A stretch of 64,000 nucleotides of DNA. It comes from Candidatus Magasanikiibacteriota bacterium (GTDB lineage Bacteria > Patescibacteriota > Patescibacteriia > Magasanikbacterales > UBA922). The stretch spans positions 35,486 through 99,485 of the forward strand of contig JABIFP010000005.1 of NCBI GenBank assembly GCA_018650645.1, written 5' to 3'. The position numbers were made by a program, and so were the translations under genes. Below the pieces are notes generated by a model. It saw nothing but the letters and a program-made list of their open reading frames with translations. It had not been told where the DNA came from and did no database searches. Positions 7,293 through 27,737 of this stretch are shown here, piece after piece; the first letter of the stretch is position 1, and each line of letters opens with the position of its first letter.

Positions 7293-7307
7293 TCATTAAT
7301 CTGATAA

Positions 7308-9194: not shown

Positions 9195-9241
9195 TTTTGA
9201 TTCTTTAACAGACCTAGATGATCTCCTTTAAAAGTATTATA

Positions 9242-10759
9242 TTATTTTAATTTTCTTGTGCCTTCTTTTGGTTTCATACCATCAAGCGGCAATGCAATAA
9301 AGAAGGTTGTTCCTTTGTTCTCTTCAGATTCAAAATAAATAGTTCCACCTGAATTTTCAACAATTGATTTAACAATGTAAAGGCCTAATCCATTTCCCTC
9401 AACATCCATCGATTTAGCATTATCAGCCCGGAATAGTTTAGAGAAAATTTTGCTTTGTTCTTTTTTTGGGATACCGTATCCTGTATCTTTGAAAGTAATG
9501 TACACATGATTCTTTTTTGCCTTTTTTTTGCCAAGAGGCTTCATTGTAACGGAAATATCTACGCTTCCTTTTTCTGGAGTATATTTTACGGCATTACTGG
9601 TAAGATTTTGAAATACTATGCGAAGTAAATTTGAGTCCGCTTGCATAATAGGAACTTCTTTTTCAAAATGTGTTTTTAATTTCAGTTTCTTTTCTTTAAT
9701 TTTTGCTGTTAGTTCTGAAATTACGCTCTTGCTGAGCTTGGGTAAGTCAACATCAGAAAGCTCAACAGAAAATGTGCCCAGTTCGATACGAGAAACATTC
9801 AGAAGTGCGTTTACCAAATCGTTCATGTGTTGATTGCTTTCATATATCTGCTCAGTGTATTCCTTTTGCAGTTTGGTAAGTTTGCCTGTGTCTCCTGAGA
9901 GAATCATTTCAACATACCAGTTAATATTGGTAAGTGGTGTACGCAATTGATGAGATGCGAGTGAAACAAATTCTGTTTTAGCTTGATCAATTTCCTTTTC
10001 TTGAACAATATTTCTAAAGACGATTACCGACCCAACAATTTTTTTACCAAGTACATATGGAGTGACCGTAATGCTAACAGGGAACATCTCTCCCTTCTTT
10101 GGCTGATAGTAAAAACAGTGAGCAATAGAGGTTTTAATACGTTCTCCGGTTGCGAGTGCTTTTACGGTTGGGCGCTCATATACAGGAATGTCTTTTCCAT
10201 CTTCTTTTTTTACCGTTACTGCCTCTACCACAGGTTTTCCAATCATTTCATGGCTGGAATACCCAAGCAAATCTTCTGCAATTGTATTCATGAACAAAAT
10301 ATTTCCATCTTGATCCGTTGCAATTAGTCCATCTCCAATACTGGAAAGGATTGCCTCATTTTTTGATTGCTCTTTCTCACCGAGGATTGATTTTTTTTGT
10401 AAATCGTCAACCAACTCTGTCATTGTTGTGCGCGCAAGTTCAAGCTCCTCATTGCGTTTTGTTTCTTCAGAAAGTTTTGTGGCTAGTGTTTTGCTGTGTT
10501 TTTCGATGGCTTCAGAAATATATCGTGAGATGCTATAAAAAATAGCACTTGAAGTCACAATATATATTAAAGTTACCGAAAGAAATGATGGGGGAGATAT
10601 ACCTCGCTGAGCACTTTCTACTCCAAATACATAAAACAAAAGAATAGGGACAAGCATGAGCATTGCAAGCACGTGTCCAAAGAAGATTTTTGTGTAGATT
10701 CCTTTTGGTTGCGGTTCCATGTGGTGCGCAATCAATAAATTATTCGGAAACTTTTTCAA
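9242..10759 (-). CDS. Sensor histidine kinase (two TM helices, PAS domain, HisKA, HATPase)
   Basis: H-box FVSLASHQLRTPLT; G-boxes DTGYGIP and GNGLGL; PAS-like region between the TM helices and the HisKA domain. Confidence 0.85.
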   Translation of the reverse strand: MKKFPNNLLIAHHMEPQPKGIYTKIFFGHVLAMLMLVPILLFYVFGVESAQRGISPPSFLSVTLIYIVTSSAIFYSISRYISEAIEKHSKTLATKLSEETKRNEELELARTTMTELVDDLQKKSILGEKEQSKNEAILSSIGDGLIATDQDGNILFMNTIAEDLLGYSSHEMIGKPVVEAVTVKKEDGKDIPVYERPTVKALATGERIKTSIAHCFYYQPKKGEMFPVSITVTPYVLGKKIVGSVIVFRNIVQEKEIDQAKTEFVSLASHQLRTPLTNINWYVEMILSGDTGKLTKLQKEYTEQIYESNQHMNDLVNALLNVSRIELGTFSVELSDVDLPKLSKSVISELTAKIKEKKLKLKTHFEKEVPIMQADSNLLRIVFQNLTSNAVKYTPEKGSVDISVTMKPLGKKKAKKNHVYITFKDTGYGIPKKEQSKIFSKLFRADNAKSMDVEGNGLGLYIVKSIVENSGGTIYFESEENKGTTFFIALPLDGMKPKEGTRKLK

Positions 10760-11105
10760 TAACGGTGTTTATGATTTCGTCTACGGTGTGATCAGATTTT
10801 ACTAGGAAATCAACTACGTCATGTTCTAGCAGTTCTGCTTCTTTATTACTCAAGTTGGTGAGCATGATTACTTTTGCAGTTTTCCCCCATTTATCTTTGC
10901 GGAGCTCTTCTAACATTGAGATACCATCTTTTCTTGGCATGATAATATCAGCTAAAATGAGATCTGGATGCTCGGAAAGGGCTAGAGCCAATCCCTCTTC
11001 TCCGTTTTTTGCTAAAAGCACATTAAAACCTTCAGTTTTCAATTTTTCTGAAAGCAAGTGAGACTGAGGTGCCTCATCTTCTACCAAAAGAATTTTCTTA
11101 CTCAT
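10740..11105 (-). CDS. Stand-alone response regulator receiver protein
   Basis: KILLVEDE...DLILADIIMP...K receiver signature; overlaps the kinase gene start, indicating a co-transcribed pair. Confidence 0.85.
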   Translation of the reverse strand: MSKKILLVEDEAPQSHLLSEKLKTEGFNVLLAKNGEEGLALALSEHPDLILADIIMPRKDGISMLEELRKDKWGKTAKVIMLTNLSNKEAELLEHDVVDFLVKSDHTVDEIINTVIEKVSE

Positions 11106-13562: not shown

Positions 13563-14672
13563 TTGAGCACTATGAAAAAGAAAAAAGTACTTATCGTGTC
13601 TGTCTCTGCTGGTTCTGGTCATGTGCGAGCAGCGCAAGCAATTGAACAGGCGGCTGCTGCGTTTCCAAATGCTAAGGTTCAGCATATTGATATGATGGAT
13701 TATGTCTCTGCACCGCTCAAGACAACAATTGTTGATGTATATGAGCAGCTTATTAAGCGTGCCCCGCAATTGTGGCGCTACTTATATGATAAGGCTGATG
13801 AAACAAATCGGATGAATCAATTTTACTCGCTCAGTAAATCAGTGAATCGGGTAAATGCACGCGCATTTTATGCATTTGTAAGCTCGTTTAAACCGGACCA
13901 TGTGATTTGTACACATTCATTTCCGGCACAGGTGCTTCGGCAGGCAAAAGATCCGGAGCTGCACGGAGTTCCCGTTAGTTTAGTAGTCACAGATTATGGC
14001 CTTCACCGTTTTTGGATAGTAAGTGATGTTGCACAGTATTTTGTGGCAACAAAGAAAATTGCTTGGGAGTTGCAACAGCATGGGGTAAACAAAAAATCGA
14101 TTGTTGTTTCGGGAATTCCTGTTGATGCGGCGTTTGCAAAGCGAGCAAATCAAAAACAAATGCGAACAACGTTAGGCCTGCCAGAAAAAAAGACGGTGCT
14201 CATAATGGGCGGGGGAGTTGGTTCCGTGCAAATGGATGATATCGTGAGTTTGTTAAGAGATCAGAAAGATAGTAAACCTCTGCATGTTATTGCCATAGCT
14301 GGGAAAAATGAGAAGTTGCTCAAGCGTTTACGAGCGCAAGAAAAAATCAAATCGCCTGTATCTATTTCTGCATTTGGGTGGAGCAACAACATTGCTGAAT
14401 TTATGGAAGCCGCAGATATTGTAGTGACAAAATCTGGTGGGCTGACAACATCAGAATGTATTGCCAGAAAAAGAATGATGGTTGTTGTTGAGCCGGTACC
14501 TGGGCAAGAAGAAAGAAATGCAGAATTTATTTTGGAACATGGGCTAGGGTTAGTAGCCAGATCTGCAGCAGATTTGTTATATGCACTTACACAAAAAAAG
14601 GAGTACGCACCAACATATAAAGTGCAACCTGCAAAAGCAGCGGCAACCATAATGAAGCGTGTCCTTGCGTAA
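13563..14672 (+). CDS. Glycosyltransferase of the MGDG-synthase / UgtP-like (diacylglycerol glycosyltransferase) family
   Basis: N-terminal KKVLIVSVSAGSGHVRAAQAI (MGDG_synth motif) plus a C-terminal GT28-like domain (GGGVGSV...VTKSGGLTTSE). Confidence 0.75.
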   Translation: MSTMKKKKVLIVSVSAGSGHVRAAQAIEQAAAAFPNAKVQHIDMMDYVSAPLKTTIVDVYEQLIKRAPQLWRYLYDKADETNRMNQFYSLSKSVNRVNARAFYAFVSSFKPDHVICTHSFPAQVLRQAKDPELHGVPVSLVVTDYGLHRFWIVSDVAQYFVATKKIAWELQQHGVNKKSIVVSGIPVDAAFAKRANQKQMRTTLGLPEKKTVLIMGGGVGSVQMDDIVSLLRDQKDSKPLHVIAIAGKNEKLLKRLRAQEKIKSPVSISAFGWSNNIAEFMEAADIVVTKSGGLTTSECIARKRMMVVVEPVPGQEERNAEFILEHGLGLVARSAADLLYALTQKKEYAPTYKVQPAKAAATIMKRVLA

Positions 14673-14683
14673 ATATTCAGTAA

Positions 14684-14712
14684 TAAAAAAACTGCCTTTC
14701 GGCAGCTTTTTT
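14684..14712. terminator. Bidirectional rho-independent terminator (CTGCC-tttc-GGCAG with A and T tracts)
   Basis: Lies between the convergent GT gene (+) and the last pilin-like gene (-). Confidence 0.7.
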
Positions 14713-14713: not shown

Positions 14714-15256
14714 TTATTTGAGATATACACCATTGTTCCCATCAGCAGAAGGAGGAAGGGGAGAAAAGGCATTAATTCCTCTGTTTGATGGATCAGGGTT
14801 TGGATGTTGTTCTTTTTGTATTTCGATATAGTCACCGCTTCGTTTTTCGTCTCCGGTAGCCAGAGTAAAGGCAAGTAGTGTGAGGGAGTAGGCACTGAGG
14901 ACAACGGCCATACCAATTACACCGTTTCTAACGGTCTTTTTTCCGGTATCAACTCGTTCTTGGTTCCCTTGTGCGGTCATAATCATGTATCCCCCAAAGA
15001 TAATATAAGAGAGAACAATAATACCCAAAAATCCGAGAGCCAGGCGAATAATAAAGGCCGCAACCGCTCTAGGGTCAGTTGGCCGCTCAAATCCGGCCCC
15101 GTCGTCACCGGCAGTTGCCTGCAGTTGCCGCGAGAGGTCGTCTGTATAGCTTCCTTGTGCGTGAATTGGTGCAAGTGGGGTAAATATACCAAAACACAGT
15201 GCAATGCTCAGCAAAAGGGTAGTAATGCGTCTCATAGGTGGTATTATCCTCCCCAT
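14714..15256 (-). CDS. TrbC/VirB2-like pilin-fold protein, paralog 1 (C-terminal Pro/Asn-rich tail)
   Basis: Signal peptide, then the shared module ...FIIRLALGFLGIIVLSYIIFGGYMIMTAQGNQERVDTGKKTVRNGVIGMAVVLSAYSLTLLAF (two TM helices). Confidence 0.7.
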   Translation of the reverse strand: MGRIIPPMRRITTLLLSIALCFGIFTPLAPIHAQGSYTDDLSRQLQATAGDDGAGFERPTDPRAVAAFIIRLALGFLGIIVLSYIIFGGYMIMTAQGNQERVDTGKKTVRNGVIGMAVVLSAYSLTLLAFTLATGDEKRSGDYIEIQKEQHPNPDPSNRGINAFSPLPPSADGNNGVYLK

Positions 15257-15699
15257 TCATCAAAAAGAGTGTCATACGTTTCGCCATCAGGGGTAGTTTG
15301 GCGAATTTGTTCATTTCTGTCTAAACTAGTTTGTGTTATTTTTCCAATGAGTAGGGTAATAGAGTAGGCTCCAAGTACTACGATGAGCCCAATAACAGCG
15401 GTTCTGATGGTTGTTTGCGCTTTTTCTACCTTAGCTTCTTCACCCTTTGCGGTTGCCCACCAAAATCCAGCCATTACCATGAGGATAGTGAATCCGATAC
15501 CTACAACGCTGAGGCCGATTTTGATAACAGAAGTAATGATTTCTTGCGGATCTGCAGAACCGTCAACACCCGCTGTTTGCTCAGAGGCTTTTACTTGTCC
15601 AGAGATTTGTTGGCCAAGAGACTGTTGGGCAAGCGCCGGTGAGGGCAACATGACCAGTAGTGCAAGTGCGGCAGAGATTGTGAGGAAGAGTTTTTTCAT
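15244..15699 (-). CDS. TrbC/VirB2-like pilin-fold protein, paralog 2
   Basis: Signal peptide plus the module VIKIGLSVVGIGFTILMVMAGFWWATAKGEEAKVEKAQTTIRTAVIGLIVVLGAYSITLLIG. Confidence 0.75.
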   Translation of the reverse strand: MKKLFLTISAALALLVMLPSPALAQQSLGQQISGQVKASEQTAGVDGSADPQEIITSVIKIGLSVVGIGFTILMVMAGFWWATAKGEEAKVEKAQTTIRTAVIGLIVVLGAYSITLLIGKITQTSLDRNEQIRQTTPDGETYDTLFDEWGG

Positions 15700-15710
15700 A
15701 GCTGTTTTTT

Positions 15711-16316
15711 TTATCTGCAGAGACCTGCACGAACTTCAGAATATGATGCTGTGCCTACACTTTCTAATCTCACCTGACCTTCACATGCATCTTGAGCTAG
15801 TGCAGGATCTACACCTGTAGTGGCAAATTTTCTACAGTCAACATTGTTGTTTGGCGGACATACCTCGCAACAACCCACCATTTCTCCTCCCGCCTGTTCT
15901 GCCGCTCCGCCACCGGTAGGTTGCCCACCAGCGGTTCGTTCTACAATTCTTGGGACAACAAAGTTGGTAATTGAGTATGAACCAACGGTAATAATTAATC
16001 CAATAACTGCCGTACGCAAAATTCCTTGCGCCTTTTCTACAGCAGATGAGTCCCCGCGTGCATTCATCCAAATGAACCCAGCATAAATGGTGAGGAGTAA
16101 GAAAATCGTTCCCACAAAAGACAGTGCGATCTTAATGACGGAACCAATCGTCTGCGCCAGTGTTGTGTCATTTGTTGCGCCGCTGTATCCCCCCTGTGTT
16201 GCGGCACCTGTGGCGAGTTTTCTACCCAAATCGATTGCTTGCGCATCTACTACAAGGAGGAGGGCCGTAAGTGTTCCTGCTGCACCAGCAAGAGCGAGAA
16301 TTTGTTTCTTATTCAT
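15711..16316 (-). CDS. TrbC/VirB2-like pilin-fold protein, paralog 3, with C-terminal Cys-rich extension
   Basis: Module VIKIALSFVGTIFLLLTIYAGFIWMNARGDSSAVEKAQGILRTAVIGLIITVGSYSITNFVV followed by a tail containing CCEVCPPNNNVDC...C...C. Confidence 0.75.
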   Translation of the reverse strand: MNKKQILALAGAAGTLTALLLVVDAQAIDLGRKLATGAATQGGYSGATNDTTLAQTIGSVIKIALSFVGTIFLLLTIYAGFIWMNARGDSSAVEKAQGILRTAVIGLIITVGSYSITNFVVPRIVERTAGGQPTGGGAAEQAGGEMVGCCEVCPPNNNVDCRKFATTGVDPALAQDACEGQVRLESVGTASYSEVRAGLCR

Positions 16317-16328
16317 AATGTTGCAACA

Positions 16329-16703
16329 TTAGCCGGCAGCTTCAAGCCGTGAAGTAATAAGCGTGGTAATTGCAAATGCGCTCAGCACAACAACAATACC
16401 AATAAGTGAATTTGAAATAATTTTCTTTGCTTTATCTACCTGCGCTTCTTCTCCTCGTGCGGTCATCCAAAGGTATCCAGCGTAAATCATGAGGAGTAAA
16501 AAGATAAGTCCAACGGTGGTGAGGAAGGTGTTAATAACAGTTCCTACAATTACGTCTGGGCTTTCTTGTTGTACACCCGCTTGTCCAGCAGATCGCTTTA
16601 ACAGGGAAGAGGCATTATTCAAATTCCCTTGTGCTAACACTGGCGCAAACATCAGTGTTGTCAGCATAAGTGAAAGAGCAATCACTTTCAGTTTTTTCAT
16701 CAT
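16329..16703 (-). CDS. TrbC/VirB2-like pilin-fold protein, paralog 4 (minimal form)
   Basis: Signal peptide plus VINTFLTTVGLIFLLLMIYAGYLWMTARGEEAQVDKAKKIISNSLIGIVVVLSAFAITTLI. Confidence 0.75.
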   Translation of the reverse strand: MMKKLKVIALSLMLTTLMFAPVLAQGNLNNASSLLKRSAGQAGVQQESPDVIVGTVINTFLTTVGLIFLLLMIYAGYLWMTARGEEAQVDKAKKIISNSLIGIVVVLSAFAITTLITSRLEAAG

Positions 16704-16718
16704 ATAGGGATGTTAAAA

Positions 16719-17315
16719 TTATCCTCCGCAGCGAGCATCGCAGCTTGCTCCGTCAAGATTTGGAACCCAAACACGTGGATGTGATCGAGTATCATCTTGA
16801 GCATCTAAATCATTTGCAATTTGTTGACAGTTTGTCTCAGTATCTAATCGGCAGGCCATAATATCTGGGCCAGTTTCAATAACGCAGCAACCAAGTGCTG
16901 CATCACCAACTTGTCCAGCTGCTGGTGGTGGGGTAGAGCCTGAGCGGTCAATTAATCTTGAAGTAATAAGCGTTGTAATGGCATAGGCACTTACAACAAT
17001 ACTGATACCAATGACGGCAGCAGTAATGGTGCTTTTTGCTTTTTCTACTTGTGCTTCTTCTCCACGGGCAGTCATCCAGAGGAATCCTCCATAGACCATA
17101 AGGACTAGGAAGATAATACCAACAGCGCTGAGGAACAGTTTGATAAGCACCCCACTACTTGTAGCAAGGTCAGTTGTTTCAAGTCCCGTTGGTTCTGTTA
17201 CGGTATTTAAAAATCGAGTGGAATCACCTATTTTGAGCTGCGCTGCTGAAGCTGAAGATGGAAGCAGGAAGGCTGCCAGTAAAAGTGTGAGAATGAGTGA
17301 TTTCCAGAATTTCAT
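16719..17315 (-). CDS. TrbC/VirB2-like pilin-fold protein, paralog 5, with C-terminal Cys-rich extension
   Basis: LIKLFLSAVGIIFLVLMVYGGFLWMTARGEEAQVEKAKSTITAAVIGISIVVSAYAITTLI followed by a tail containing CCVIETGPDIMAC...C...C.ARC; start placed at internal MKFWKS. Confidence 0.75.
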   Translation of the reverse strand: MKFWKSLILTLLLAAFLLPSSASAAQLKIGDSTRFLNTVTEPTGLETTDLATSSGVLIKLFLSAVGIIFLVLMVYGGFLWMTARGEEAQVEKAKSTITAAVIGISIVVSAYAITTLITSRLIDRSGSTPPPAAGQVGDAALGCCVIETGPDIMACRLDTETNCQQIANDLDAQDDTRSHPRVWVPNLDGASCDARCGG

Positions 17316-17338
17316 AAAGGTGTTGGCAATAAAAAGGT

Positions 17339-17932
17339 TTACCCAATACATTGATAGAAAATATCTAAGCAGTTGACTTCACAATCAACGTCGTCATTAC
17401 ATTCAGGTACACAGGCTTCGTAGGGTGTATTACAGCTTAAATATTTTGGTTTGGTAACGCATTTCAAATATTCGGGACCTCGTGTAATTCTTTGACAAGA
17501 ATCATTAGCACCACACGCTTGAGAGGCAAGGCTATCGCAACTTGCTGAAGAATTGGCAACGGCTCCACCACCTCCACCAACAGAGTTAAAGACAAAACTC
17601 GTAATTGCATATGCACCAAGGACTAAGATAAGTCCAATGATTGCAGCAATGATAGTGTCTTTTGCTTTTGTAACCAGTTCTTCTTTTCCATGAGCAGTCA
17701 TCCAAAGGAATCCTCCATAAATCATCAGTACAAAGAAAACGACACCAATAACAGAAAGGGCAGTACCAACAATGGCACCCGTAAGAGTTGGTAAATCTTT
17801 TCCGTAAGCTGCAAGTCCTGATCGATTTGCTGTAGCATCAAGACCATAGTTTCCGGCAGCGAGTGCTGGAGCTACGGTGATTGGAAGCGCTAGGGTGCTT
17901 ACGGCTAGAGTATAAAAAAGTTTCTTAAGCAT
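17339..17932 (-). CDS. TrbC/VirB2-like pilin-fold protein, paralog 6, with C-terminal Cys-rich extension
   Basis: IVGTALSVIGVVFFVLMIYGGFLWMTAHGKEELVTKAKDTIIAAIIGLILVLGAYAITSFV followed by a ~80-aa tail with 14 Cys. Confidence 0.75.
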   Translation of the reverse strand: MLKKLFYTLAVSTLALPITVAPALAAGNYGLDATANRSGLAAYGKDLPTLTGAIVGTALSVIGVVFFVLMIYGGFLWMTAHGKEELVTKAKDTIIAAIIGLILVLGAYAITSFVFNSVGGGGGAVANSSASCDSLASQACGANDSCQRITRGPEYLKCVTKPKYLSCNTPYEACVPECNDDVDCEVNCLDIFYQCIG

Positions 17933-17940
17933 AGGGAATA

Positions 17941-18672
17941 TTAAGGTTGATCAGGAACAATATCTAGTGGTGCGGGGTTGTTATTGAGAATGTCATCTTC
18001 CCTGTCATTGTCATTGGGTATCCGATCTTCAACATTTCCAACCTCCGCATCAAGGCCTAAATCAAGATCAGAATTACGAAGTACGCATCGTTCATCGCTA
18101 CACATTAGGGCATCACCACCTTGCGGACCAATACAATCAGAATCTTGTGCACAAGCAACTCCCAAAATCGATTTACATTGTCCTGCATCACAATAAGAAT
18201 CACTATCAGGACAGTCAAAGTCTGTACTACAGGCCGTTATGGGTGGATTTGTGCTTCCTGCCCCTCCACTTGGCGTCCCCGCACTATTAAACACTAAATT
18301 CGTTACCGCATACGCCACTAAAATAACCACTACACCAATGATCGCTGCCGTTACAGATTCTTTTGCTTTATTAATGAGTGTTTCGTCTCCTCTTGCGGTC
18401 ATCCAGATAAATCCGGCGTATACTATTATGATAAAGAAGAGTACGCCAAGCAGTGAAAGCGCGTTGGCTATAATTCTTCCGGCTAGTTGCAAGAGTGCTG
18501 GGCCATTTTTTTCATTAATTGATTTGTCTGCAAGTTCTGCGGTTGCTACTGTTTCTCTTAATCCTGCGGCTGGATTTGATTGCACTGCAGAAACGGTCAT
18601 TGGCAAAAGTAATGCAAGACCGCATACACTTAGCAGCAATAATCGAGTAAAACTATGCAGGCGTAAGAACAT
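17941..18672 (-). CDS. TrbC/VirB2-like pilin-fold protein, paralog 7, with C-terminal Cys/Asp-rich extension
   Basis: IIANALSLLGVLFFIIIVYAGFIWMTARGDETLINKAKESVTAAIIGVVVILVAYAVTNLV followed by CSTDFDCPDSDSYCDAGQC...; start placed at internal MFLRLHSF (ATG confirmed at 18670-18672). Confidence 0.75.
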   Translation of the reverse strand: MFLRLHSFTRLLLLSVCGLALLLPMTVSAVQSNPAAGLRETVATAELADKSINEKNGPALLQLAGRIIANALSLLGVLFFIIIVYAGFIWMTARGDETLINKAKESVTAAIIGVVVILVAYAVTNLVFNSAGTPSGGAGSTNPPITACSTDFDCPDSDSYCDAGQCKSILGVACAQDSDCIGPQGGDALMCSDERCVLRNSDLDLGLDAEVGNVEDRIPNDNDREDDILNNNPAPLDIVPDQP

Positions 18673-18673
18673 A

Positions 18674-19039
18674 CTAATATCTATACGGGACTCCCGTTGT
18701 TGCTTCAAATAAGGCACCAGAAACAAATTGTGTGATTGCAAATGCAGCAAGAACAACTCCAAGACCAATAGCCGCAGCTTGTATAGTTCCCTTTGCTTTA
18801 TCAATAGCTTCTGAATTTCCTTGACTCGTCATCCACTGAAAACCGGCTTTGATGATGAGAGACACAAAGATAATACCGAGTAAACCGAGTGCCACATTGA
18901 TAATAGAAACGGCGGTAACGCGTACATCTCTTGATCCTAAACCTGTGGCAGCCCCGTATTCAAGGCCGATGTCTTGCGCAGAAGCGGCAACTGGGAGTGC
19001 TACAAATGCGGCGCAAATTGTCCAAAACGAATATTTCAT
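18674..19039 (-). CDS. TrbC/VirB2-like pilin-fold protein, paralog 8
   Basis: IINVALGLLGIIFVSLIIKAGFQWMTSQGNSEAIDKAKGTIQAAAIGLGVVLAAFAITQFV; start placed at internal MKYSFW (ATG at 19037-19039). Confidence 0.7.
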   Translation of the reverse strand: MKYSFWTICAAFVALPVAASAQDIGLEYGAATGLGSRDVRVTAVSIINVALGLLGIIFVSLIIKAGFQWMTSQGNSEAIDKAKGTIQAAAIGLGVVLAAFAITQFVSGALFEATTGVPYRY

Positions 19040-19099
19040 AGAGCTATTACTACAGGTGTGCACGGAATGCACAGTTGTAGGAACACCTGAAAGCCCGAA

Positions 19100-19120
19100 G
19101 GGGCAGGAAGTTCCTGCCCC
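19100..19120 (-). promoter_or_regulatory. Stable GC hairpin GGGGCAGGA-agt-TCCTGCCCC inside the pilin array (between paralogs 9 and 8)
   Basis: Perfect 9-bp stem; the only long intergenic gap (95 bp) in an otherwise tightly packed array; no strong T tract follows on the transcribed strand. Confidence 0.45.
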
Positions 19121-19134
19121 GCGAACGAGTTTCA

Positions 19135-19578
19135 CTATGCTGGATCAAATCCTGCAGTATTGGTTGCAGACCCGAGTGCGTTGATAACGAATCGAGTAAT
19201 AGCCCAAGCTGAAAGAATAATCGCAAGCCCGACAATACCAGAGAAGATAAGCTTTCGCGCTTCTCCAACTTTGTCTTCAGATCCACCAGATGTCATCCAC
19301 TTGAAGCCACCGATAAGAACGACGACTACAGCTACGATACCGAGGAGTGAGAGTGATACGTTGATAATTTTTGAAGCCGTAGTACGGAGATCTTGTTTAC
19401 CAAGAGCAATTCCGTCAGCATCATTATCGATTGGTTCAAGCCCCAAGGGGTCCTCAGGATTAAACTCACCTGGTTGTAACGCTTGTGACATAGATGGAAC
19501 CATGAGTGCCACCATTGCAAAAGCTGCAACAATAGCGATAATTCCACGATGGTGTGAGAGTTTAGCTAGTAAGTACAT
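19135..19578 (-). CDS. TrbC/VirB2-like pilin-fold protein, paralog 9
   Basis: IINVSLSLLGIVAVVVVLIGGFKWMTSGGSEDKVGEARKLIFSGIVGLAIILSAWAITRFV; ATG at 19576-19578. Confidence 0.7.
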   Translation of the reverse strand: MYLLAKLSHHRGIIAIVAAFAMVALMVPSMSQALQPGEFNPEDPLGLEPIDNDADGIALGKQDLRTTASKIINVSLSLLGIVAVVVVLIGGFKWMTSGGSEDKVGEARKLIFSGIVGLAIILSAWAITRFVINALGSATNTAGFDPA

Positions 19579-19706
19579 ATGTCTCACCCCCTTTCCGCAT
19601 GAAGATGTTCGACATAACCGGTCATATCGACCAGACCAAAGCGCAATATTTGTGCGTTGGGCCGGGCGATACGCTGCTAAGTGGAACAGTTTATTGAATA
19701 ATAAAC

Positions 19707-20123
19707 TTACTTGCCAGTAAGTCCTTTAATAACCAAGCTAAGTATAGCATAGGCCCCAAAAACGATAAAGAGCCCAAGCGCTGAGTAGATCATTGCATGC
19801 CATCCTTTTTTTACTTGCTCTGCAGAACCGGCTGATGTGAGCCACATAAAGCCTCCATAAATGAAGACAAGCAGAGTAAGCGACCCAACAAGTCCGAGTG
19901 CGCTTTTGATAACGCGTGCTGCTAGTTCGTTAATTGGAGCTGTGACATCTTTATCTTTTACTGCCTCTCTACTTATTCCGCGGGGGTTGTCTTTTGTTCC
20001 GCCAATTGGGTTGACGAGTTCCCCTCCAGACACTGTTCCACCTGCTGCGAATAATTGCAGCGGTAAAAACAGGCTTATCATAAGTGGTAGTGCCAGAAGC
20101 ATTGTACGTGATCTTTTTTTCAT
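19707..20123 (-). CDS. TrbC/VirB2-like pilin-fold protein, paralog 10
   Basis: VIKSALGLVGSLTLLVFIYGGFMWLTSAGSAEQVKKGWHAMIYSALGLFIVFGAYAILSLV. Confidence 0.7.
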   Translation of the reverse strand: MKKRSRTMLLALPLMISLFLPLQLFAAGGTVSGGELVNPIGGTKDNPRGISREAVKDKDVTAPINELAARVIKSALGLVGSLTLLVFIYGGFMWLTSAGSAEQVKKGWHAMIYSALGLFIVFGAYAILSLVIKGLTGK

Positions 20124-20124
20124 A

Positions 20125-21195
20125 TTACACGAACCAAGAAGTTAGCGCGTCAGTTACTTTTCTAAAGTCGAATTCTTTACTCACGCCAAGCGTATCAAGA
20201 ATAAATCCTACCAGCATATATGCGCTGAAAGAGATGGCAATACCAATCACTGCGGCTCCTAATATACTTTTTCCTTTCTTTACTTTGTCAGGGGAACCGA
20301 ATGATAAAATGATAGTAACACCACCGTAGATAAAGAAGGCAAGTGCTATGGTTCCGATAACGCCAAAGAGGATACGTGCAGCATTGATTAGGAGTTGTAC
20401 TAAATCATTTACATTTCTGCAGCCGCTATAACTAAATGCGCAATCGGGGATTGGTCCATCATAATTTGTTGGTGCACCGCGGACAGGTTTTCCGCCAACG
20501 TCGCCCCGGCATTCTGGGCAGGTTTGTACGCAGGCTTGGTGATTTTTTTGGAGGCACTCCTGTCTTGAAACAGTATTGAGAGGGGCATCTTCTCCTGATC
20601 CCAGGGGTGCCCCGATTTCGGGGCATTCAGGAACAAGCGAGCTATCAGACTGTGCCGTCATAAATACTTCACAATCGTCTTTAGTTTTAAAATTATCTTC
20701 AGGTTTTGCAACACGGCCAGCTAAACAGTCAGCAAATTTTGTTTTGCATGCATCGTTGTAGCCATCTGGAAGTGTACCGCCACGTAGGGAACAGTTTTGT
20801 GTTTCTAATTCTGCTCTACAGTGGAGTGCCTTTATGGGTGCAGATTGAAAGACTCTTCCACTTACAATCGGACTAATTCGTGCAGGAGTATAGTTTCCTG
20901 CTGGTCTAGCTTGTGTGCGGGTAAAGCCGGCACCACAGTCCTGAATTTTACAATTATTGTATCGAGGTAGTGTACAGATTTGTGCGCAGGCTGGTTGGTG
21001 ACGGCCTTCAGTGGTGTCAAACTGAATACAAATATTTCTTTTTTCGTCGAGGTCTTCAAAGACACAGGATTCTGTGTATCTATCGTCATCTACATCACCT
21101 GGATCATATCCATAGTCTGCATTTGCTGCAGCGGGAAAGATACATAATAATGAAAAAAGAGATAGGTAAAGGAATTGTTTCAGTATGTATCGCAT
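20125..21195 (-). CDS. Secreted protein: ~250-aa N-terminal Cys-rich domain (~24 Cys) fused to a C-terminal TrbC/VirB2-like two-TM module (paralog 11)
   Basis: Signal peptide MRYILKQFLYLSLFSLLCIFPAAANA; C-terminus ...LINAARILFGVIGTIALAFFIYGGVTIILSFGSPDKVKKGKSILGAAVIGIAISFSAYMLVGFI. Confidence 0.7.
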   Translation of the reverse strand: MRYILKQFLYLSLFSLLCIFPAAANADYGYDPGDVDDDRYTESCVFEDLDEKRNICIQFDTTEGRHQPACAQICTLPRYNNCKIQDCGAGFTRTQARPAGNYTPARISPIVSGRVFQSAPIKALHCRAELETQNCSLRGGTLPDGYNDACKTKFADCLAGRVAKPEDNFKTKDDCEVFMTAQSDSSLVPECPEIGAPLGSGEDAPLNTVSRQECLQKNHQACVQTCPECRGDVGGKPVRGAPTNYDGPIPDCAFSYSGCRNVNDLVQLLINAARILFGVIGTIALAFFIYGGVTIILSFGSPDKVKKGKSILGAAVIGIAISFSAYMLVGFILDTLGVSKEFDFRKVTDALTSWFV

Positions 21196-21196: not shown

Positions 21197-22558
21197 TTAC
21201 ATCGTTTGCTGCATGCGTCTTGCAGCTTGATTTAATAAGCTCGCATCTCTATCTTCCTGATCAACATCATCTGGCACAGGAAGAAGATGCGCTTCAATCA
21301 GTGCTTCAAAAATATTTTCTGCAACGTCAGCGTTACTTCCTTGGTACCAGTTTCTTGCAGTAAGTAAGTTTACAACAAAGGGTTCAAGTAGTGGGTCTTC
21401 TAAACTTTCAGCAATATGTAATCTATATGGAGAAGGTTGGCGTGTTGCTGCAGTATATGTTTTTACATTTTCTTGTGATCCAATAAATCTAAGGAAGTCC
21501 CAGGCATAATCAGGCTCAGTTGTTTTTTTCACAACAGTTTCTACCCAATAGTTTGCGATATTTGTGGGGTTAGCAGGATCAAGTTGTGGAAGTGCAACAA
21601 CATCTAAATTTAATTGTGGATTTGCTGCGCGGATTCGTCCAGCATCAAAGGCGTATCCAATATAGAACACACTTCGGCCTCGTACAAATGCATCAAATGC
21701 ATTTTCTTGACGGTTGTTCCAGGTGTATGTGTCTCTGTCTTGCTGCGCAAAGTCGGTATAAAAACGAAGTACTTCTAATGCTGGCGCTTCTTCTGAACGT
21801 GTTCCACCTGTGGCAAAGCTGACAATACCATTTTCTGCTACACGCAATTTGCGTTGCATCATAAGTGTTGCCAAAATGTCTGGGGCATTATCTATATTAG
21901 TTGCTGTTCCCATTGCTACTCCAGATTGCACTATATCGTCTTGAGAATTAAATCGAGTTGATTTTTTCACAGCGTCTACAAATTCGTCCCATGTTGCTGG
22001 GGGAGTCGCAACACCCGCTCTGTCGAGCAAATCTTTATTATAATAAAGTGCTAAAGAATCCATGGCTAAAGGAAGACCATAAATTGCACCATTTCTGACA
22101 ACATCTGCGCCTACTGCGCTTACATAGTTTTGCCGAATGTTTGAAGCACTTGGCATGGCATTAATCTCTGGTTCTACCACAGTTTCTTTTACGTATTGTC
22201 CTTTTACATATACGTTAGAAACGCGAGTTGCTCTGGGCATTTCGAGTAGCCGTGGTTGATATTTACTGATATCTTTTGCATGTACAGAAATAATATCTGG
22301 TGCAACATCATCCGCGAGCGCATTTACAAACTTGTCTTCAAATTCTTCAAATCGCACTTGTCTAATATTTATTTGTACCTGCGGCTTTCTAGCTGAATAA
22401 GCAGAAGCGAATTGTCTGAGCTGCGATACGTTTCCAAAAACAGTCCAATAATCAAGCGTAACGCGCTGTGTGCGTTGCACTTCGGCAGCTGTTGGTCCTT
22501 TACATCCAAATCCAAAGAGAAGGAGGAGTGATAGGGTAAAAACTAAATAGCGTTTCAT
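21197..22558 (-). CDS. ABC transporter extracellular solute-binding lipoprotein (family 1, sugar-type)
   Basis: Lipobox LLLLFGFGCKG and the overall SBP_bac_1-like architecture; start placed at MKRYLV (ATG at 22556-22558). Confidence 0.7.
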   Translation of the reverse strand: MKRYLVFTLSLLLLFGFGCKGPTAAEVQRTQRVTLDYWTVFGNVSQLRQFASAYSARKPQVQINIRQVRFEEFEDKFVNALADDVAPDIISVHAKDISKYQPRLLEMPRATRVSNVYVKGQYVKETVVEPEINAMPSASNIRQNYVSAVGADVVRNGAIYGLPLAMDSLALYYNKDLLDRAGVATPPATWDEFVDAVKKSTRFNSQDDIVQSGVAMGTATNIDNAPDILATLMMQRKLRVAENGIVSFATGGTRSEEAPALEVLRFYTDFAQQDRDTYTWNNRQENAFDAFVRGRSVFYIGYAFDAGRIRAANPQLNLDVVALPQLDPANPTNIANYWVETVVKKTTEPDYAWDFLRFIGSQENVKTYTAATRQPSPYRLHIAESLEDPLLEPFVVNLLTARNWYQGSNADVAENIFEALIEAHLLPVPDDVDQEDRDASLLNQAARRMQQTM

Positions 22559-22571: not shown

Positions 22572-23354
22572 TTAAGTAAACGCATTTTCAATAATGAATT
22601 GAACAATCGCGTAAGAGCCTAGAACGATTAAGATACCAAGAGCTCCCCAATATAAAATTTCTTTTGCTTCGTTTTCTCTTTGTGCATTCCCTGTTGCTAC
22701 CATCCAGAGAATTCCTGCGTATACCATGACTACCAGCGCAATTGTTCCAATGATACCCATGGCTGTTTTAATTACACGACCGATGAGTTTTTGTGGAGAG
22801 GTGCCTGGAAGTTGGTCGAGGGCTTTTAAAGACGCTCCAAGGTTTCCGTCTGATGTTGCGAAGAGAGACTTGTCGCCGTCAGCAGACGTACCATACCACT
22901 GACAATTTGTGTAAATTGATCGATTGAGTGTTCCTTTTTCTTCTGGCTTTATGCTTTGGCCTGATTCGGCATTATCAAGCTGATTCCCCACGCTATCATC
23001 GCTACAGTTTGATTGGTTTAAGGAAGGCACCAGCTTAGGTTCGTTGGCACTTGTGCGTTCTTCGTTAGTTACTGTGCAATAACATCCTTCTTTTTTATCA
23101 GCACAGGCTTTATATTCATTTCCTTTCTTATAATTTTGTAGGCAAGTAAGGACTTTATCAATGGTAATATTTGTTGTTGCATTACACTGAGAAATTCCAG
23201 CTTGTAAACACTGTTTTTCTCTAGAAGACAGTCCTCCTAAATCTAATTTTCCAGAGCTGATACTTTGCGCCATCACATCAACCGGAAACAGCAAAGCAAC
23301 ACAAAAAAACATGATTGCTATAAAAAATGTATGTGACAAGCGTTTCAAAAACAT
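22572..23354 (-). CDS. Secreted protein: N-terminal Cys-rich domain fused to a C-terminal TrbC/VirB2-like two-TM module (paralog 12)
   Basis: Signal peptide; ~13 Cys in the N-terminal half; C-terminus VIKTAMGIIGTIALVVMVYAGILWMVATGNAQRENEAKEILYWGALGILIVLGSYAIVQFI. Confidence 0.7.
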   Translation of the reverse strand: MFLKRLSHTFFIAIMFFCVALLFPVDVMAQSISSGKLDLGGLSSREKQCLQAGISQCNATTNITIDKVLTCLQNYKKGNEYKACADKKEGCYCTVTNEERTSANEPKLVPSLNQSNCSDDSVGNQLDNAESGQSIKPEEKGTLNRSIYTNCQWYGTSADGDKSLFATSDGNLGASLKALDQLPGTSPQKLIGRVIKTAMGIIGTIALVVMVYAGILWMVATGNAQRENEAKEILYWGALGILIVLGSYAIVQFIIENAFT

Positions 23355-23355: not shown

Positions 23356-24225
23356 CTAACAGTGAGAAGAAATAATTTCTTTTAGTGCCGGGTCTTTTTG
23401 TGCAAAGTGAAGCGTTGCTGTGAGAAGTGCTCCTTTGTTTCCTGTGTCGAAGTACTGTCCATCATATTCATACGCAAGGAATTTTTTCTTGCGGGCCATT
23501 TCGTTTGCTGCATCCGCTACCCAAATCTCTCCATCTTTTCCGTTTCCTTGTTTTTCTAGCATCTTCCAGATGTCTTTGGTAAAGATGTAGCGCATGCCCC
23601 CAATAATAAGGCCGTGCGGAGAGGTATTTTTTTCTGCAGGTTTTTCTACAAATTTTTGTACTTTATACAATCTACTTTCTTTTTCCTGTTTAGCAAATAC
23701 GTTTCCGTATTTGGTCATTGCCGCGCGGTCCTCTATTCGTTGCACACCAATAACCGGCGCTTGATGCCTGTTATACACTTTCATGAGCTGCTTAATAACA
23801 GGTGTTTTAGCATCAATAATACTGTCTCCGTCAGAGAATGCGAACGGCTCATCGCCTACAAAATGGCGGGCACACAGAAGTGCATGTCCATTTCCAAGTG
23901 GTGCCGATTGGCGTGTGTAAAAAAATTGCACTTTACTTGTAAGATCGATAAGTGGCTGGAGTCGGTCTAGTTTTCCTTTGCTCTTTAAAAACGCTTCAAA
24001 ATCTTTGTTTCTGTCAAAGTGATCTTCAATAGCGCGTTTTTGAGAACTTGTGACAAAGATAATTTGCTCAATACCACTTTCTACCATTTCTTCAACAATA
24101 TATTGTAATACTGGCTTATCCAAAACGGGAAGCATTTCTTTTGGCATTGCCTTCGTTGCTGGCAGGAATCGTGTTCCAAGTCCTGCTACAACAATAACTC
24201 CTTTTCTTACTTTCTCTTTTGGCAT
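23356..24225 (-). CDS. galU: UTP--glucose-1-phosphate uridylyltransferase
   Basis: VIVVAGLGTRFLPATKAMPKEMLPV nucleotidyltransferase motif typical of GalU. Confidence 0.85.
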   Translation of the reverse strand: MPKEKVRKGVIVVAGLGTRFLPATKAMPKEMLPVLDKPVLQYIVEEMVESGIEQIIFVTSSQKRAIEDHFDRNKDFEAFLKSKGKLDRLQPLIDLTSKVQFFYTRQSAPLGNGHALLCARHFVGDEPFAFSDGDSIIDAKTPVIKQLMKVYNRHQAPVIGVQRIEDRAAMTKYGNVFAKQEKESRLYKVQKFVEKPAEKNTSPHGLIIGGMRYIFTKDIWKMLEKQGNGKDGEIWVADAANEMARKKKFLAYEYDGQYFDTGNKGALLTATLHFAQKDPALKEIISSHC

Positions 24226-25645: not shown

Positions 25646-25800
25646 AGCTAGATAAAAATGTACTAAAATTACGCGCGTACTATAACAAAATGGGGTTATC
25701 GTGTCAAGGGAAATACTGTTATTTGTTGCTCAGCAAACCTATCCGCAGAATTGTGTGGTCTGCGCTGAGTGAGTGTGATATACTTGTTGTAGAGAAAAAT

Positions 25801-26895
25801 ATGTATAAAACGGCTCAAAAAGTCTTATTTTTAGCACTATTGTGCTCGTTTTTGGGTATGAGTGTGTATTCTGTGCAGGCTGTTATGGAAGGGGGCGATT
25901 ATGAAATTTATGCGGACACCTTTTCTTCTATAGATGGCTCAGCTGTTGCTGGTGGAGGGTATCAAATATATCAAACAAGTGGTGAAGGGTACGCAGATAA
26001 TTATACGCAGGCAGTTACGGGGCAAATTACAGCATCGGGAACTCTGTTTGGCATCGATGAAGTAGTATATATAAGTGATGGCAGTACCACTACTCGATTC
26101 TTATATATAAATTTGGGCGGTGGAAACAGTGGATATTGCTATAACACAACTACCTTTAATCAATCTGGGCAGCCTTGCGTGAATAATCTTGTATTGATTG
26201 ATATTGGTGGCGGGTGTGATTTTGACCCGGTGTGTCTGGCAAATGCAACATATGATGCTATGGTAAGTTCTTCAGAGAAATTTCTAATGTCTGTTTCAAC
26301 CAGTACAAATGCCACAGTAAATTTGACCAATGCAAACCCTGATGCTACAGGGAATGTGGCAATTACAGATGAAGTGGCTGATGCAAACTACATAGTAAGT
26401 GGAATGACCATTAGCGGGGATAGTTATATATTAAAAGCAGGTTTTCAGGCGATGGAAAAGGGTTCGGTTACGATGACGCTAAGCACAAGCTCTCTTTCGT
26501 TTGGAACGCTGAGTGAGAGTACACTTACAACAAGCTCTATTATTGCTACAGTAACTTCAGATACCACTACAGGGTACGGAGTGACCGTTTCGGAAGATAC
26601 AAATTTATGTATTGGTGGAGTTAACTGTACGTTGGACGCGAATAATATTGATGACATTGTTGTAGCTCCAGTAGCGGCAGGTTCTGAAGGCTATGGTATG
26701 AAAACTTCAGGTGGTGCAGGACTTCTTGCGGCTGATACAGCGATTACAAGCGATGGAGTAGCTACAATAAACTCTGGAACAGATGTTACATCGCAGCAAA
26801 CGACCATACTTTTTAGTGTAGCAATCGATGCGGCTCAAACAATAGCCGGAGCATATTCACATACGGTGACAGTCACTGCAACAGCTAATCCATAG
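25801..26895 (+). CDS. Secreted Thr/Ser-rich cell-surface protein with a WxL-domain-like C-terminus
   Basis: Signal peptide (start at internal MYKTAQK); C-terminal ...AGAYSHTVTVTATANP resembles the WxL C-terminal motif (G.Y.G.LTWTL.DAP) of Firmicutes surface proteins. Confidence 0.45.
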   Translation: MYKTAQKVLFLALLCSFLGMSVYSVQAVMEGGDYEIYADTFSSIDGSAVAGGGYQIYQTSGEGYADNYTQAVTGQITASGTLFGIDEVVYISDGSTTTRFLYINLGGGNSGYCYNTTTFNQSGQPCVNNLVLIDIGGGCDFDPVCLANATYDAMVSSSEKFLMSVSTSTNATVNLTNANPDATGNVAITDEVADANYIVSGMTISGDSYILKAGFQAMEKGSVTMTLSTSSLSFGTLSESTLTTSSIIATVTSDTTTGYGVTVSEDTNLCIGGVNCTLDANNIDDIVVAPVAAGSEGYGMKTSGGAGLLAADTAITSDGVATINSGTDVTSQQTTILFSVAIDAAQTIAGAYSHTVTVTATANP

Positions 26896-26896
26896 T

Positions 26897-27736
26897 ATGT
26901 ATATTCGGCTCATGAGTTTACTTGCGCTTGCGCTCTTATTGCCGAGTAGCGTACTTGCGCTTACCGTTTCTCCGCCGCGCCAAACGGTGACGGTGGCTCC
27001 TGGGGAAACAGCAGAACTACCACTCTATGTAATAAATGAGGAGCGTGTTCCCGTTGTTATCAAAGGAGAAGTCGATGCATTTAGAATTGATCAGGAATCT
27101 GGAACGGCAATGTTTGGTCAGCCAGATAGGGCCAAAACATGGATTATTCCAAGGGAAAAAAAAGTTGTATTGCAACCAGGAGAGTCTGCAAGTCTAACAT
27201 TTGATGTGCGTATTCCAGAGGGCGCGTTGCCTGGGGCACATTATATGGGAGTGTTTGCAAGCGCAGCTGCGGGAGAGGGAAATGTGGGTGCAAAAGCTCG
27301 GATTGGATCGCTTGTATTTTTACATGTTGCGGGGGAAGTCCATGAAGAAGCGCGTATTGTTGATGTGTCTACAAAACAGTTTATTGTAAAAGAGAATACC
27401 GCAGAAGTATATATACGAGTAGAAAATTTGGGAGATATTCATATTATTCCAGAAGGAACCGTAACGCTTATTGGAGAAGAAACGCAGACACCGATTAATG
27501 TTTCGCAAGAAAAAGTGTTGGCAGATCACGCGCATACAATGGCGGTACCTGTGCCACTCGAGTTGCGGCATATCGGAAAACAAAAAGCGCGAGTTGCAGT
27601 AACGTATGGCGTAACGCAGCAACAATTATTTGAAGAAGTGACCTTTTATTATGTGCCGTTATGGCTGCGTTTTGCAGCAGGTGGAATATTTCTTCTATTA
27701 GTAATTGGAGCAAGTATATTTTTTACAAGAAAGTAG
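26897..27736 (+). CDS. Secreted protein with a C-terminal TM anchor, DUF916/DUF3324-like (WxL-locus partner type)
   Basis: Signal peptide, beta-rich ectodomain, single C-terminal TM helix (LWLRFAAGGIFLLLVIGASIFFTRK); lies adjacent to the WxL-like gene. Confidence 0.4.
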   Translation: MYIRLMSLLALALLLPSSVLALTVSPPRQTVTVAPGETAELPLYVINEERVPVVIKGEVDAFRIDQESGTAMFGQPDRAKTWIIPREKKVVLQPGESASLTFDVRIPEGALPGAHYMGVFASAAAGEGNVGAKARIGSLVFLHVAGEVHEEARIVDVSTKQFIVKENTAEVYIRVENLGDIHIIPEGTVTLIGEETQTPINVSQEKVLADHAHTMAVPVPLELRHIGKQKARVAVTYGVTQQQLFEEVTFYYVPLWLRFAAGGIFLLLVIGASIFFTRK

Positions 27737-27737
27737 T

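Follow-up and report, generated by a model that had tools for sequence, protein, structure and literature searches.

The canonical pilins of type IV secretion systems (T4SS), VirB2 of the Ti plasmid, TrbC of RP4 and TraA of F, share a signal peptide and two hydrophobic helices joined by a short cytoplasmic loop. They are encoded by single-copy genes in T4SS operons of diderm bacteria, and the mature proteins are ~70-80 amino acids (aa) long. Diverged VirB2-like pilin genes arranged in tandem have also been described in Patescibacteria, or Candidate Phyla Radiation (CPR), which make up a large and mostly uncultured fraction of bacteria and are apparently host-attached. Here, we examine a 64-kb stretch of the ultra-small genome of a Candidatus Magasanikbacteria bacterium, hereafter the window, in which twelve tandem genes on the minus strand encode proteins with a common pilin module. 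It is close to certain that this locus is a Patescibacteria VirB2-like pilin array. In contrast to the canonical pilins, it belongs to a monoderm-type CPR cell, is present in 12 copies and carries N- or C-terminal ectodomains on some of them, and neither a cyclisation peptidase nor a VirB5 tip protein, as in canonical conjugative systems, was seen.

The closest described systems are the pilin series of other Patescibacteria. Quinonero-Coronel et al. (2025) screened 3,035 Patescibacteria genomes with the Pfam families PF18895 and PF04956 and reported 441 arrays of 2-11 VirB2-like pilins, with an average identity of 25% and a maximum of 54%, mostly in Microgenomatia and Saccharimonadia (PMC12102498). 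Wang et al. (2023) found by transposon sequencing (Tn-seq) that the predicted pilin series in the Southlakia epibionticum T4SS cluster SEML1_0006-0019 is essential (PMC10633639), and the TM7x 'Sec-secreted array' is of the same kind. According to a 2025 review (PMC12857230), no T4SS pilins other than those of Patescibacteria are known in monoderm-type bacteria, and the role of the T4SS in the one genetically tractable Patescibacteria species has been described as completely unknown (PMC11665869, PMC10633639). Like these arrays, the locus in the window matches PF18895 and PF04956, lies in the same phylum and is composed of tandem diverged copies; published arrays may also hold an interrupting non-pilin gene, as does a solute-binding protein (SBP) gene here. 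With 11-12 copies it falls at the upper end of the 2-11 reported so far, and up to 13 are found per related ABY1 locus. It differs from the published arrays in that half of the copies carry Cys-rich ectodomains and in its class, as Magasanikbacteria are placed in GTDB class ABY1 by the Patescibacteria survey (PMC12102498) rather than in Microgenomatia or Saccharimonadia. Furthermore, unlike the published series in T4SS clusters, it is neither in nor near a T4SS cluster and sits in a neighbourhood of GalU, SBP and glycosyltransferase genes.

Two other groups share features with the array. Several diverged VirB2 paralogs in a row are also found in Bartonella, Anaplasma and Rickettsiales, where a role in host interaction or antigenic variation has been proposed (cited in PMC12102498). 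However, those bacteria are diderm intracellular pathogens with virB-linked, lineage-specific expansions, whereas the paralogs described here are ancient collinear orthologs. The NF045849 family, from a Mycoplasma integrative and conjugative element (ICE) and Bacillota, shares the module and differs in being single-copy inside a conjugative element. A preliminary description of the window had implied that the array was novel. This does not hold, given that the array class in CPR is already published (PMC12102498 and PMC10633639) and the genes are already annotated as T4SS_pilin or 'pilin'. No new class of system is revealed, and the array itself will not surprise specialists. What is added here is the collinearity of the paralogs, the hairpin after one of them, the hypervariability of their tails and a conserved neighbourhood detached from any T4SS.

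Anatomy and family assignment of the array

Eleven back-to-back open reading frames (ORFs) at 14714-21195 of the minus strand share a common ~80-aa module and are numbered here P1 to P11 by increasing coordinate. The preliminary description had counted these eleven correctly and overlooked a twelfth copy, P12, at 22572-23312, which lies upstream of the SBP gene in the same gene string and brings the total to 12. Start sites were taken from public gene calls on identical DNA, and are later than those of the longest ORFs for P1, P7, P8, P9 and P10. P11 and P6 correspond to NCBI HOE53_00735 and HOE53_00710 of a Candidatus Magasanikbacteria metagenome-assembled genome, both 100% identical, and a taxonomy look-up places this organism within the Patescibacteria group (CPR). 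The features of the array are as follows, in the order in which they would be transcribed, with PF18895 scores to be read against the gathering score given below.

22572..23312, minus strand: P12, 246 aa, signal peptide and ~150-aa N-terminal ectodomain with 8 Cys, pilin module C-terminal (PF18895 30.3 bits; positional orthologs in related loci)
21197..22558, minus strand: SBP, solute-binding protein of the SBP_bac_1/8 type with a lipobox-like N-terminus, LLLFGFGC, between P12 and P11 (Pfam E = 8e-24)
20125..21195, minus strand: P11, signal peptide, ~240-aa N-terminal domain with 18 Cys, pilin module with an 'SFG' loop (PF18895 31.6 bits)
19707..20102, minus strand: P10, short pilin, 131 aa, mature part without Cys (PF04956 31.7 bits; PF18895 32.9 bits)
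19579..19706, minus strand: intergenic region upstream of P9, 128 nucleotides (nt), moderately structured (z = -2.5)
19135..19578, minus strand: P9, 147 aa, no Cys, candidate major subunit (PF18895 42.7 bits)
19040..19134, minus strand: structured intercistronic region after P9, 95 nt (-44.5 kcal/mol, z = -5.3)
18674..19039, minus strand: P8, short pilin, 121 aa by gene call, nearest paralog P9 (PF18895 29.8 bits)
17941..18672, minus strand: P7, pilin, then a Gly/Ser/Pro linker and a tail with 8 Cys, C-terminus acidic (PF18895 29.6 bits)
17339..17932, minus strand: P6, pilin, then a Gly-rich linker and a tail with 10 Cys (PF18895 35.5 bits)
16719..17351, minus strand: P5, pilin followed by a 6-Cys tail (PF18895 31.7 bits)
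16329..16703, minus strand: P4, minimal pilin, 124 aa (PF18895 34.4 bits; NF045849 36 bits, cut-off 40)
15711..16316, minus strand: P3, pilin followed by a 6-Cys tail (PF18895 21.6 bits, below cut-off; leave-out model 90 bits)
15244..15699, minus strand: P2, short pilin with an acidic tail (PF18895 20.6 bits, below cut-off; leave-out model 79 bits)
14714..15235, minus strand: P1, pilin with a Pro/Asn-rich tail, final gene of the operon, 173 aa by gene call (PF18895 21.5 bits, below cut-off; leave-out model 78.5 bits)
14692..14705, no strand assigned: canonical bidirectional intrinsic terminator, CTGCC-tetraloop-GGCAG between A7 and T7 (inverted repeat)

Alignment of the paralogs gives the module consensus IxxALSxxGxIFLxLxIYGGFxWMTAxGxExxVxKAKxxIxxAxIGLxIVLxAYAIT, and core identity between pairs of paralogs averages 34%, with a range of 21-57%. 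Hydropathy profiles of all 12 copies begin with a hydrophobic, signal-like segment, after which come two long hydrophobic helices, and the alignment places AxA-type cleavage sites at the end of the signal segment. The mature proteins range from 100 to 330 aa. For P9, an AlphaFold model based on 84 sequences (mean predicted local distance difference test score, pLDDT, 83) is a helical hairpin with helices at 64-95 and 101-139 modelled at >90, and hydropathy, alignment and this model together give every copy the two-helix and signal-peptide layout of a VirB2/TrbC-type pilin. The shared module with a signal peptide and two transmembrane (TM) helices had been noticed in the preliminary description, as had the TrbC/VirB2-like identity, and both stand up to alignment and profile search.

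PF18895 (T4SS_pilin, gathering score 26.6 bits) is matched by 12 of 12 copies with E = 1e-4 to 6e-11, and nine of them, P4-P12, score above the cut-off at 29.6-42.7 bits. The other three, P1-P3, fall below it at 20.6-21.6 bits, but are considered genuine members of the set because a hidden Markov model (HMM) built from P4-P12 alone scores them at 78-90 bits. For PF04956 (TrbC/VirB2, gathering score 27.9 bits), P10 is the only copy above cut-off (31.7 bits), with P12 (21.2), P9 (20.2) and P4 (17.5) below it and no match in the other copies. Over 66-69 residues, P9, P4 and P12 also match NCBIfam NF045849 (Mbov_0395 family pilin-like conjugal transfer protein) at 29.6-36 bits, which does not reach the cut-off of 40 bits and makes them relatives of this family, not members. 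Public annotation likewise tags nine of the 12 array genes as T4SS_pilin, and the NCBI annotation pipeline PGAP names some homologs 'pilin'. Set against the definition of an array in PMC12102498, the locus consists of 12 tandem genes with one interposed SBP gene and a mean core identity of 34% in a Patescibacteria genome. Co-encoding with T4SS machinery, by which a VirB2/TrbC-type pilin is also recognised, was not found in the ~84 kb examined, namely the 64-kb window and 10 kb past each end.

The module is also found well beyond this locus. In a global library, 79,125 cluster representatives (50% identity) have a match to it at E up to 1e-3. A tblastn search of the plasmid database PLSDB with P10 returned a single match, a gene for an 'Mbov_0395 family pilin-like conjugal transfer protein' carried by a megaplasmid of Pontibacillus (Bacillota), NZ_CP062975. 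In the corresponding region, 351801-358115, this gene is located ~4 kb upstream of a gene for a 'VirB4-like conjugal transfer ATPase, CD1110 family' and also upstream of a large cell-wall endopeptidase gene. The proximity of the pilin gene to the ATPase gene therefore gives the module a T4SS context in a monoderm outside CPR. As a separate observation, the Pontibacillus homolog raises the possibility that VirB2-like proteins exist in monoderm T4SSs, contrary to frequent statements.

The genes of the array are closely packed. The preliminary description had put the gaps at 2-15 bp; most are 1-22 nt or short overlaps, and the exceptions are the 128 nt and 95 nt on either side of P9. Together with the terminator, which starts 9 nt past the P1 stop and is common to the array and the convergent glycosyltransferase gene downstream, this layout reads as one operon running P12-SBP-P11...P1 and ended by a canonical terminator. 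A consensus promoter scan of the array gave no more sites than shuffled sequence, and a scan of the locus with Rfam gave only a chance-level match at the terminator. There are no long direct or inverted repeats or invertible segments in the array region.

Collinear orthologs, variable tails and the hairpin after P9

Relatives were collected by a genome scan with the core alignment of P4-P7 as query, which gave 80 loci, mostly in records titled Magasanikbacteria, Uhrbacteria, Falkowbacteria or 'Patescibacteria group'. Many records of metagenome-assembled genomes, including loci L006, L009 and L013, are titled 'uncultured Gammaproteobacteria bacterium' yet are syntenic with the Magasanikbacteria arrays, and the label is probably a placeholder or wrong. 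An HMM of the window cores detects pilin ORFs in nearly all of the 80 loci, with 1-13 per locus; at least five are present in 68 of them and 13 in four, and many loci end at contig ends. Arrays are the rule in this lineage. In syntenic loci, the best window matches occur in the order P12-(SBP)-P11-P10-P9-P8-[P7/P6]-P5-P4-P3-P2-P1. When position is compared with paralog number in the 37 loci that hold 8 or more pilins, Kendall tau has a median of -0.87 and is -0.7 or lower in 76% of them. Every window paralog has some cross-genome matches that outscore its best paralog within the window. One-to-one collinear orthology extends to P12, P11, P10, P9, P8, P4, P3, P2 and P1, and the P5-P7-type class alone varies in copy number and in tail length (4 to 38 Cys). 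As judged by these comparisons, the array is ancient and collinear. Collinear orthology combined with the lack of repeats speaks for twelve parts that are not redundant, and against a repertoire that switches or was amplified recently. The locus suggests that the pilin set of Magasanikbacteria/ABY1 is a fixed and ordered kit of about twelve distinct parts. The available parts of the published accounts of Patescibacteria arrays (PMC12102498, PMC10633639) mention neither collinear orthology nor a hairpin after P9.

The paralogs differ in what is appended to the module. As the preliminary description had noted, Cys-rich C-terminal tails are carried by P3 (6 Cys), P5 (6), P6 (10) and P7 (8), P1 has the Pro/Asn-rich tail and P11 the large N-terminal domain with its 18 Cys. 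With Cys residues of the signal peptides left out, the mature proteins from P1 to P12 contain 0, 0, 6, 0, 6, 10, 8, 0, 0, 0, 18 and 8 Cys. All of these counts are even, as expected if extracellular disulfides form, and the Cys-rich parts are probably disulfide-bonded outside the cell. In a set of 25 P6-type orthologs, identity to P6 averages 61% over the mature core (residues 25-118) and 21% over the tail; for the closest ortholog the values are 78% over residues 1-118 and 38% over the tail. Comparison of orthologs thus indicates Cys-rich tails that are hypervariable on a conserved core. Conserved class motifs are also present, with DYGL..TA marking the P6 class and Y.GP(I/L)PDCAF located directly ahead of TM1 in P11 orthologs. 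Searched alone against Pfam, the appended parts (the tails of P3, P5, P6 and P7 and the N-terminal domains of P11 and P12) matched no family; the P7 tail has a weak, sub-threshold EB-module-like match (E = 0.007). The predicted structure of P11, from a 6-sequence alignment, has a mean pLDDT of 55, which is too low for a fold search.

In some relatives the additions are far larger. Proteins of 600-2200 aa, up to 2,206 residues, with an N-terminal pilin module occur in five loci (L039, L071, L054, L072 and L080). In the two whose extensions were scanned for domains, L039 (9845-11686) and L071 (9839-16459), the module is followed by Ig-like Big_5, TIG and DUF4215 domains, and these fusions resemble giant adhesins on a pilin anchor. 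The earlier suggestion that a constant core carries variable extracellular parts is in line with the hypervariable tails and with these Ig-domain fusions. The module is also reiterated within single polypeptides. Single-chain 'poly-pilins' with 2-17 tandem modules lead the matches in the global library (entries P0247-P0396); entry P0247 has six modules in 555 aa with one signal peptide, and entry P0250 has 17 modules in 1775 aa. Such chains are a Rosetta-stone hint that different pilin modules may pack side by side as neighbours.

P9 stands apart from the other copies. Its PF18895 score of 42.7 bits is the highest of the 12, and its homologs form 669 clusters, the best 120 of which are mostly 50-64% identical, most over at least 95% of the length. 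It is the only gene with a long intergenic region on both sides, one of 128 nt upstream (19579-19706), containing a ribosome-binding site, GGAAAGGGGG, 6 nt ahead of the ATG, and one of 95 nt downstream (19040-19134). The hairpin after P9 pointed out in the preliminary description is confirmed as a 9-bp GC-rich stem at 19100-19120, GGGGCAGGA-ACU-UCCUGCCCC, 15 nt past the stop. A second hairpin follows downstream, with no clean U-tract, and a 116-nt fold of the region has a free energy of -44.5 kcal/mol (z = -5.3). In relatives, the median folding energy of the 80 nt downstream of P9-type genes is -27.2 kcal/mol (n=85), compared with -9 to -12 for the other internal paralog classes and -19 for the terminal P1 type (Mann-Whitney p = 6e-24 against the P9 type). 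P10-type genes also have intergenic spacers, yet fall in the -9 to -12 kcal/mol group. Across the 85 orthologs, the hairpin is retained as a property of position and not of sequence.

P9 is likely the major subunit, because it combines the top pilin score, full-length conservation, intergenic regions of its own and the P9-specific hairpin. A major pilus subunit gene followed by a hairpin is a classic arrangement. In pap and fim chaperone-usher operons and type IV pilin genes, as in the array, a plain conserved subunit gene is followed by a strong hairpin and then by minor or adhesin subunits. Those systems use unrelated protein families and assembly machines, and the analogy is one of regulation only. 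By this analogy, P9-type hairpins may have a regulatory role, and the element after P9 could act as an intercistronic attenuator or an mRNA stabiliser that raises P9 over the downstream genes. The canonical U-tract terminator after P1 shows that such terminators are in use in this genome.

Proposed assembly of the pilins and the absence of a linked T4SS

We cautiously favour, as somewhat probable, a heteromeric surface filament in which one major subunit is joined by about eleven others that are minor or bear adhesins, probably driven by a T4SS encoded elsewhere. Each protein would be exported by Sec, have its signal peptide cut at the AxA site and enter the membrane as a hairpin of two helices, its termini facing outwards and its short loop cytoplasmic, a topology suggested by the sequences and by that known for VirB2/TraA. 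The paralogs would be parts of one heteromeric assembly and not alternatives to one another, in agreement with their conserved order and with cross-genome matches that outscore those between paralogs in the window. P9 would be the abundant structural subunit, its excess set by the stem-loop after the stop, which would terminate part of the transcripts or stabilise the mRNA, and the other eleven would be low-abundance subunits, several of which would bear disulfide-bonded, fast-evolving extracellular domains on the filament's outer surface or at its tip, in contact with a host cell or substrate. By analogy with VirB2/TraA pilins, extraction from the membrane and helical polymerisation would leave the termini on the filament surface, and the N- and C-terminal additions would therefore be displayed. 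The force for extraction and polymerisation would probably come from a VirB4-type T4SS elsewhere in the genome; in Saccharibacteria, the pilin series is itself part of an essential T4SS cluster. Homology, operon anatomy, collinear orthology, the P9-specific hairpin and the hypervariability of the tails are shown by the comparisons made here, whereas filament formation, dependence on a T4SS, an adhesin role and disulfide bonding are what we infer for the array. In keeping with a T4SS at another site, Magasanikbacteria (ABY1) assemblies are marked VirB4-positive in Table S1 of PMC12102498, in the part available. A fixed, ordered kit of this sort gives testable predictions concerning the stoichiometry of the subunits, which of them contact the host and whether the filament needs a T4SS.

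Several observations weigh against this filament. VirB4, VirD4 and a recognisable VirB6 are missing from the ~84 kb covered by Pfam scans of the window ORFs and by gene tables reaching 10 kb past each end. The preliminary description had noted the lack of these genes in 64 kb and had named a complete system just outside as a refuting finding; none is present in the 10 kb past either end. No Pfam match to VirB3 or other T4SS machinery was obtained among the scanned window ORFs or the precomputed gene tables. Neither was a VirB4-like ATPase found within 10 kb on either side of the matched pilin gene in the 80 related loci, where all ORFs of at least 300 aa that have a Walker-A motif and no homolog in the window are UvrA, FtsH or DnaA. 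The conserved neighbours, GalU, SBP, glycosyltransferases and DUF2079, are of the envelope type and not of the T4SS type. It is difficult to see how a helical pilus could accommodate ectodomains of 250-2200 aa on each of its subunits, and most hairpins after P9-type genes lack a U-tract. In addition, the available parts of PMC12102498, PMC10633639, PMC12857230 and PMC11665869 contain no report of a VirB2-type pilus observed on a Patescibacterium. A bolder version, which we regard as rather unlikely, is that the conserved locus from galU to the glycolipid synthase gene encodes a new surface organelle of monoderm cells, a VirB2-fold filament with P9 as major and about eleven minor subunits carrying modular, fast-evolving disulfide-rich or Ig-like adhesin domains, with a distant T4SS or no linked one and possibly in association with a glycolipid or the SBP. 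A dozen VirB2 paralogs would then divide the labour within one type of pilus, for which no description was found in the available parts of the T4SS literature.

The same observations bear on the idea that the proteins form no filament at all and are T4SS-independent membrane anchors, in which the two-helix module presents extracellular domains on a wall-poor ultrasmall cell, perhaps as a membrane hetero-oligomer. Both the lack of T4SS genes near the array, here and in the 80 related loci, and the conserved neighbourhood of envelope and glycoconjugate genes are in its favour, and extensions of ~480-2100 aa (Ig-like in L039 and L071) and poly-module chains with 12-34 TM segments look like membrane proteins. 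However, P2, P4, P8, P9 and P10 display almost nothing and yet are the best conserved, a stoichiometry signal after one plain subunit fits a polymer better, and the homologous Saccharibacteria series lies inside an essential T4SS cluster (PMC10633639). We therefore consider anchors of this kind doubtful. Less probable still is a variation repertoire of interchangeable pilins or adhesins, used alternately against host defences or to suit a change of host strain, a role proposed for the VirB2 paralogs of Bartonella and Anaplasma and also raised for Patescibacteria (PMC12102498). The preliminary description had entertained a diversified ligand or receptor repertoire, and the high divergence between copies (34% core identity), the hypervariable P5-P7-class tails and the varying copy number of that class between genomes would suit one. 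Against it are the strict collinear one-to-one orthology of nine paralogs, which makes them ancient and not recently diversifying, their placement in a single operon with internal promoter-like sites no more frequent than by chance, the absence of long repeats and invertible segments from the region, and distinct conserved class motifs such as Y.GPIPDCAF in P11 and DYGL..TA in P6. An unrelated family of small membrane proteins, such as a holin, bacteriocin immunity protein or transporter subunit, might resemble pilins as any two-helix hydrophobic hairpin would. There are weak sub-threshold matches to FixQ, Cyt_bd_oxida_II, SieB and TctB, automatic Joint Genome Institute (JGI) names for some homologs are 'cbb3 oxidase subunit 3' and 'TRAP permease small subunit', and a fold search does not separate pilins from other helical hairpins. 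Nevertheless, curated cut-offs are passed by nine of 12 copies for PF18895 and by P10 for PF04956 and the other families score far below theirs, the signal peptides are cleavable, and homologs occur in T4SS clusters of Bacillota and Saccharibacteria. This makes an unrelated family highly improbable, and the holin or immunity-protein alternative raised earlier was not borne out by profile search.

Neighbouring genes and other features of the window

The array is flanked by two further genes.

23356..24225, minus strand: galU, UTP-glucose-1-phosphate uridylyltransferase (Pfam NTP_transferase; TIGR01099 galU 284 bits, cut-off 326.8)
13563..14672, plus strand: monogalactosyldiacylglycerol (MGDG)/diglucosyl-diacylglycerol synthase-like glycosyltransferase, convergent downstream neighbour (PF06925 E = 2e-28; NF010135 192 bits, below cut-off)

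Upstream of the array, the genes rpsF-ssb-rpsR-galU are co-directional with it. The galU gene lies 43 nt before P12 and is possibly co-transcribed with the array, and a homologous 290-aa gene is located upstream of the array in 33 of the 80 related loci. An SBP homolog adjoins or lies inside the array in 35-39 of the 80, an MGDG-synthase-like gene is found downstream in 16 and family 2 glycosyltransferases (GT2) in 9-11. DUF2079, Band_7, a Xer-type (phage-integrase family) recombinase and penicillin-binding protein (PBP) genes also recur near arrays. The cell-envelope neighbourhood proposed in the preliminary description is therefore conserved in relatives with respect to GalU, SBP and glycosyltransferases. 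No ABC permease for the SBP at 21197-22558 was detected among the scanned window ORFs, and this orphan lipoprotein-type sugar SBP, whose gene separates P12 from P11, could capture nutrients or act as a lectin associated with the pilus.

Elsewhere, the window is ordinary chromosome, with a chemotaxis operon, ribonucleotide reductase (RNR), RuvB, ThrRS, transketolase and PilB among its genes. The chemotaxis operon (CheD, CheC, CheA, CheB, CheY, CheW, a dCache methyl-accepting chemotaxis protein, a PAS histidine kinase and a response regulator) and a PilB/T2SSE ATPase are located at 1794-11105 and 46256-47986. Together, the chemotaxis operon and the type IV pilus ATPase may be a chemosensory system steering twitching motility. 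Four plus-strand ORFs of 401, 279, 778 and 328 aa at 25690-31043 have little or no annotation; the 778-aa product contains three CarboxypepD_reg domains, and the block may be another surface structure. A 1348-aa ORF at 52521-56567 is without any Pfam match, and the adjoining 415-aa ORF at 51302-52549 is likewise unannotated. A deoxynucleotide-metabolism cluster comprising ThyA, DCD, two dCMP deaminases, dUTPase, DHFR, NUDIX and Tmk is found at 60000-64000 and in L003:7956-12897, and with the class I RNR at 37390-41295 it represents a notable biosynthetic capacity for a CPR bacterium.

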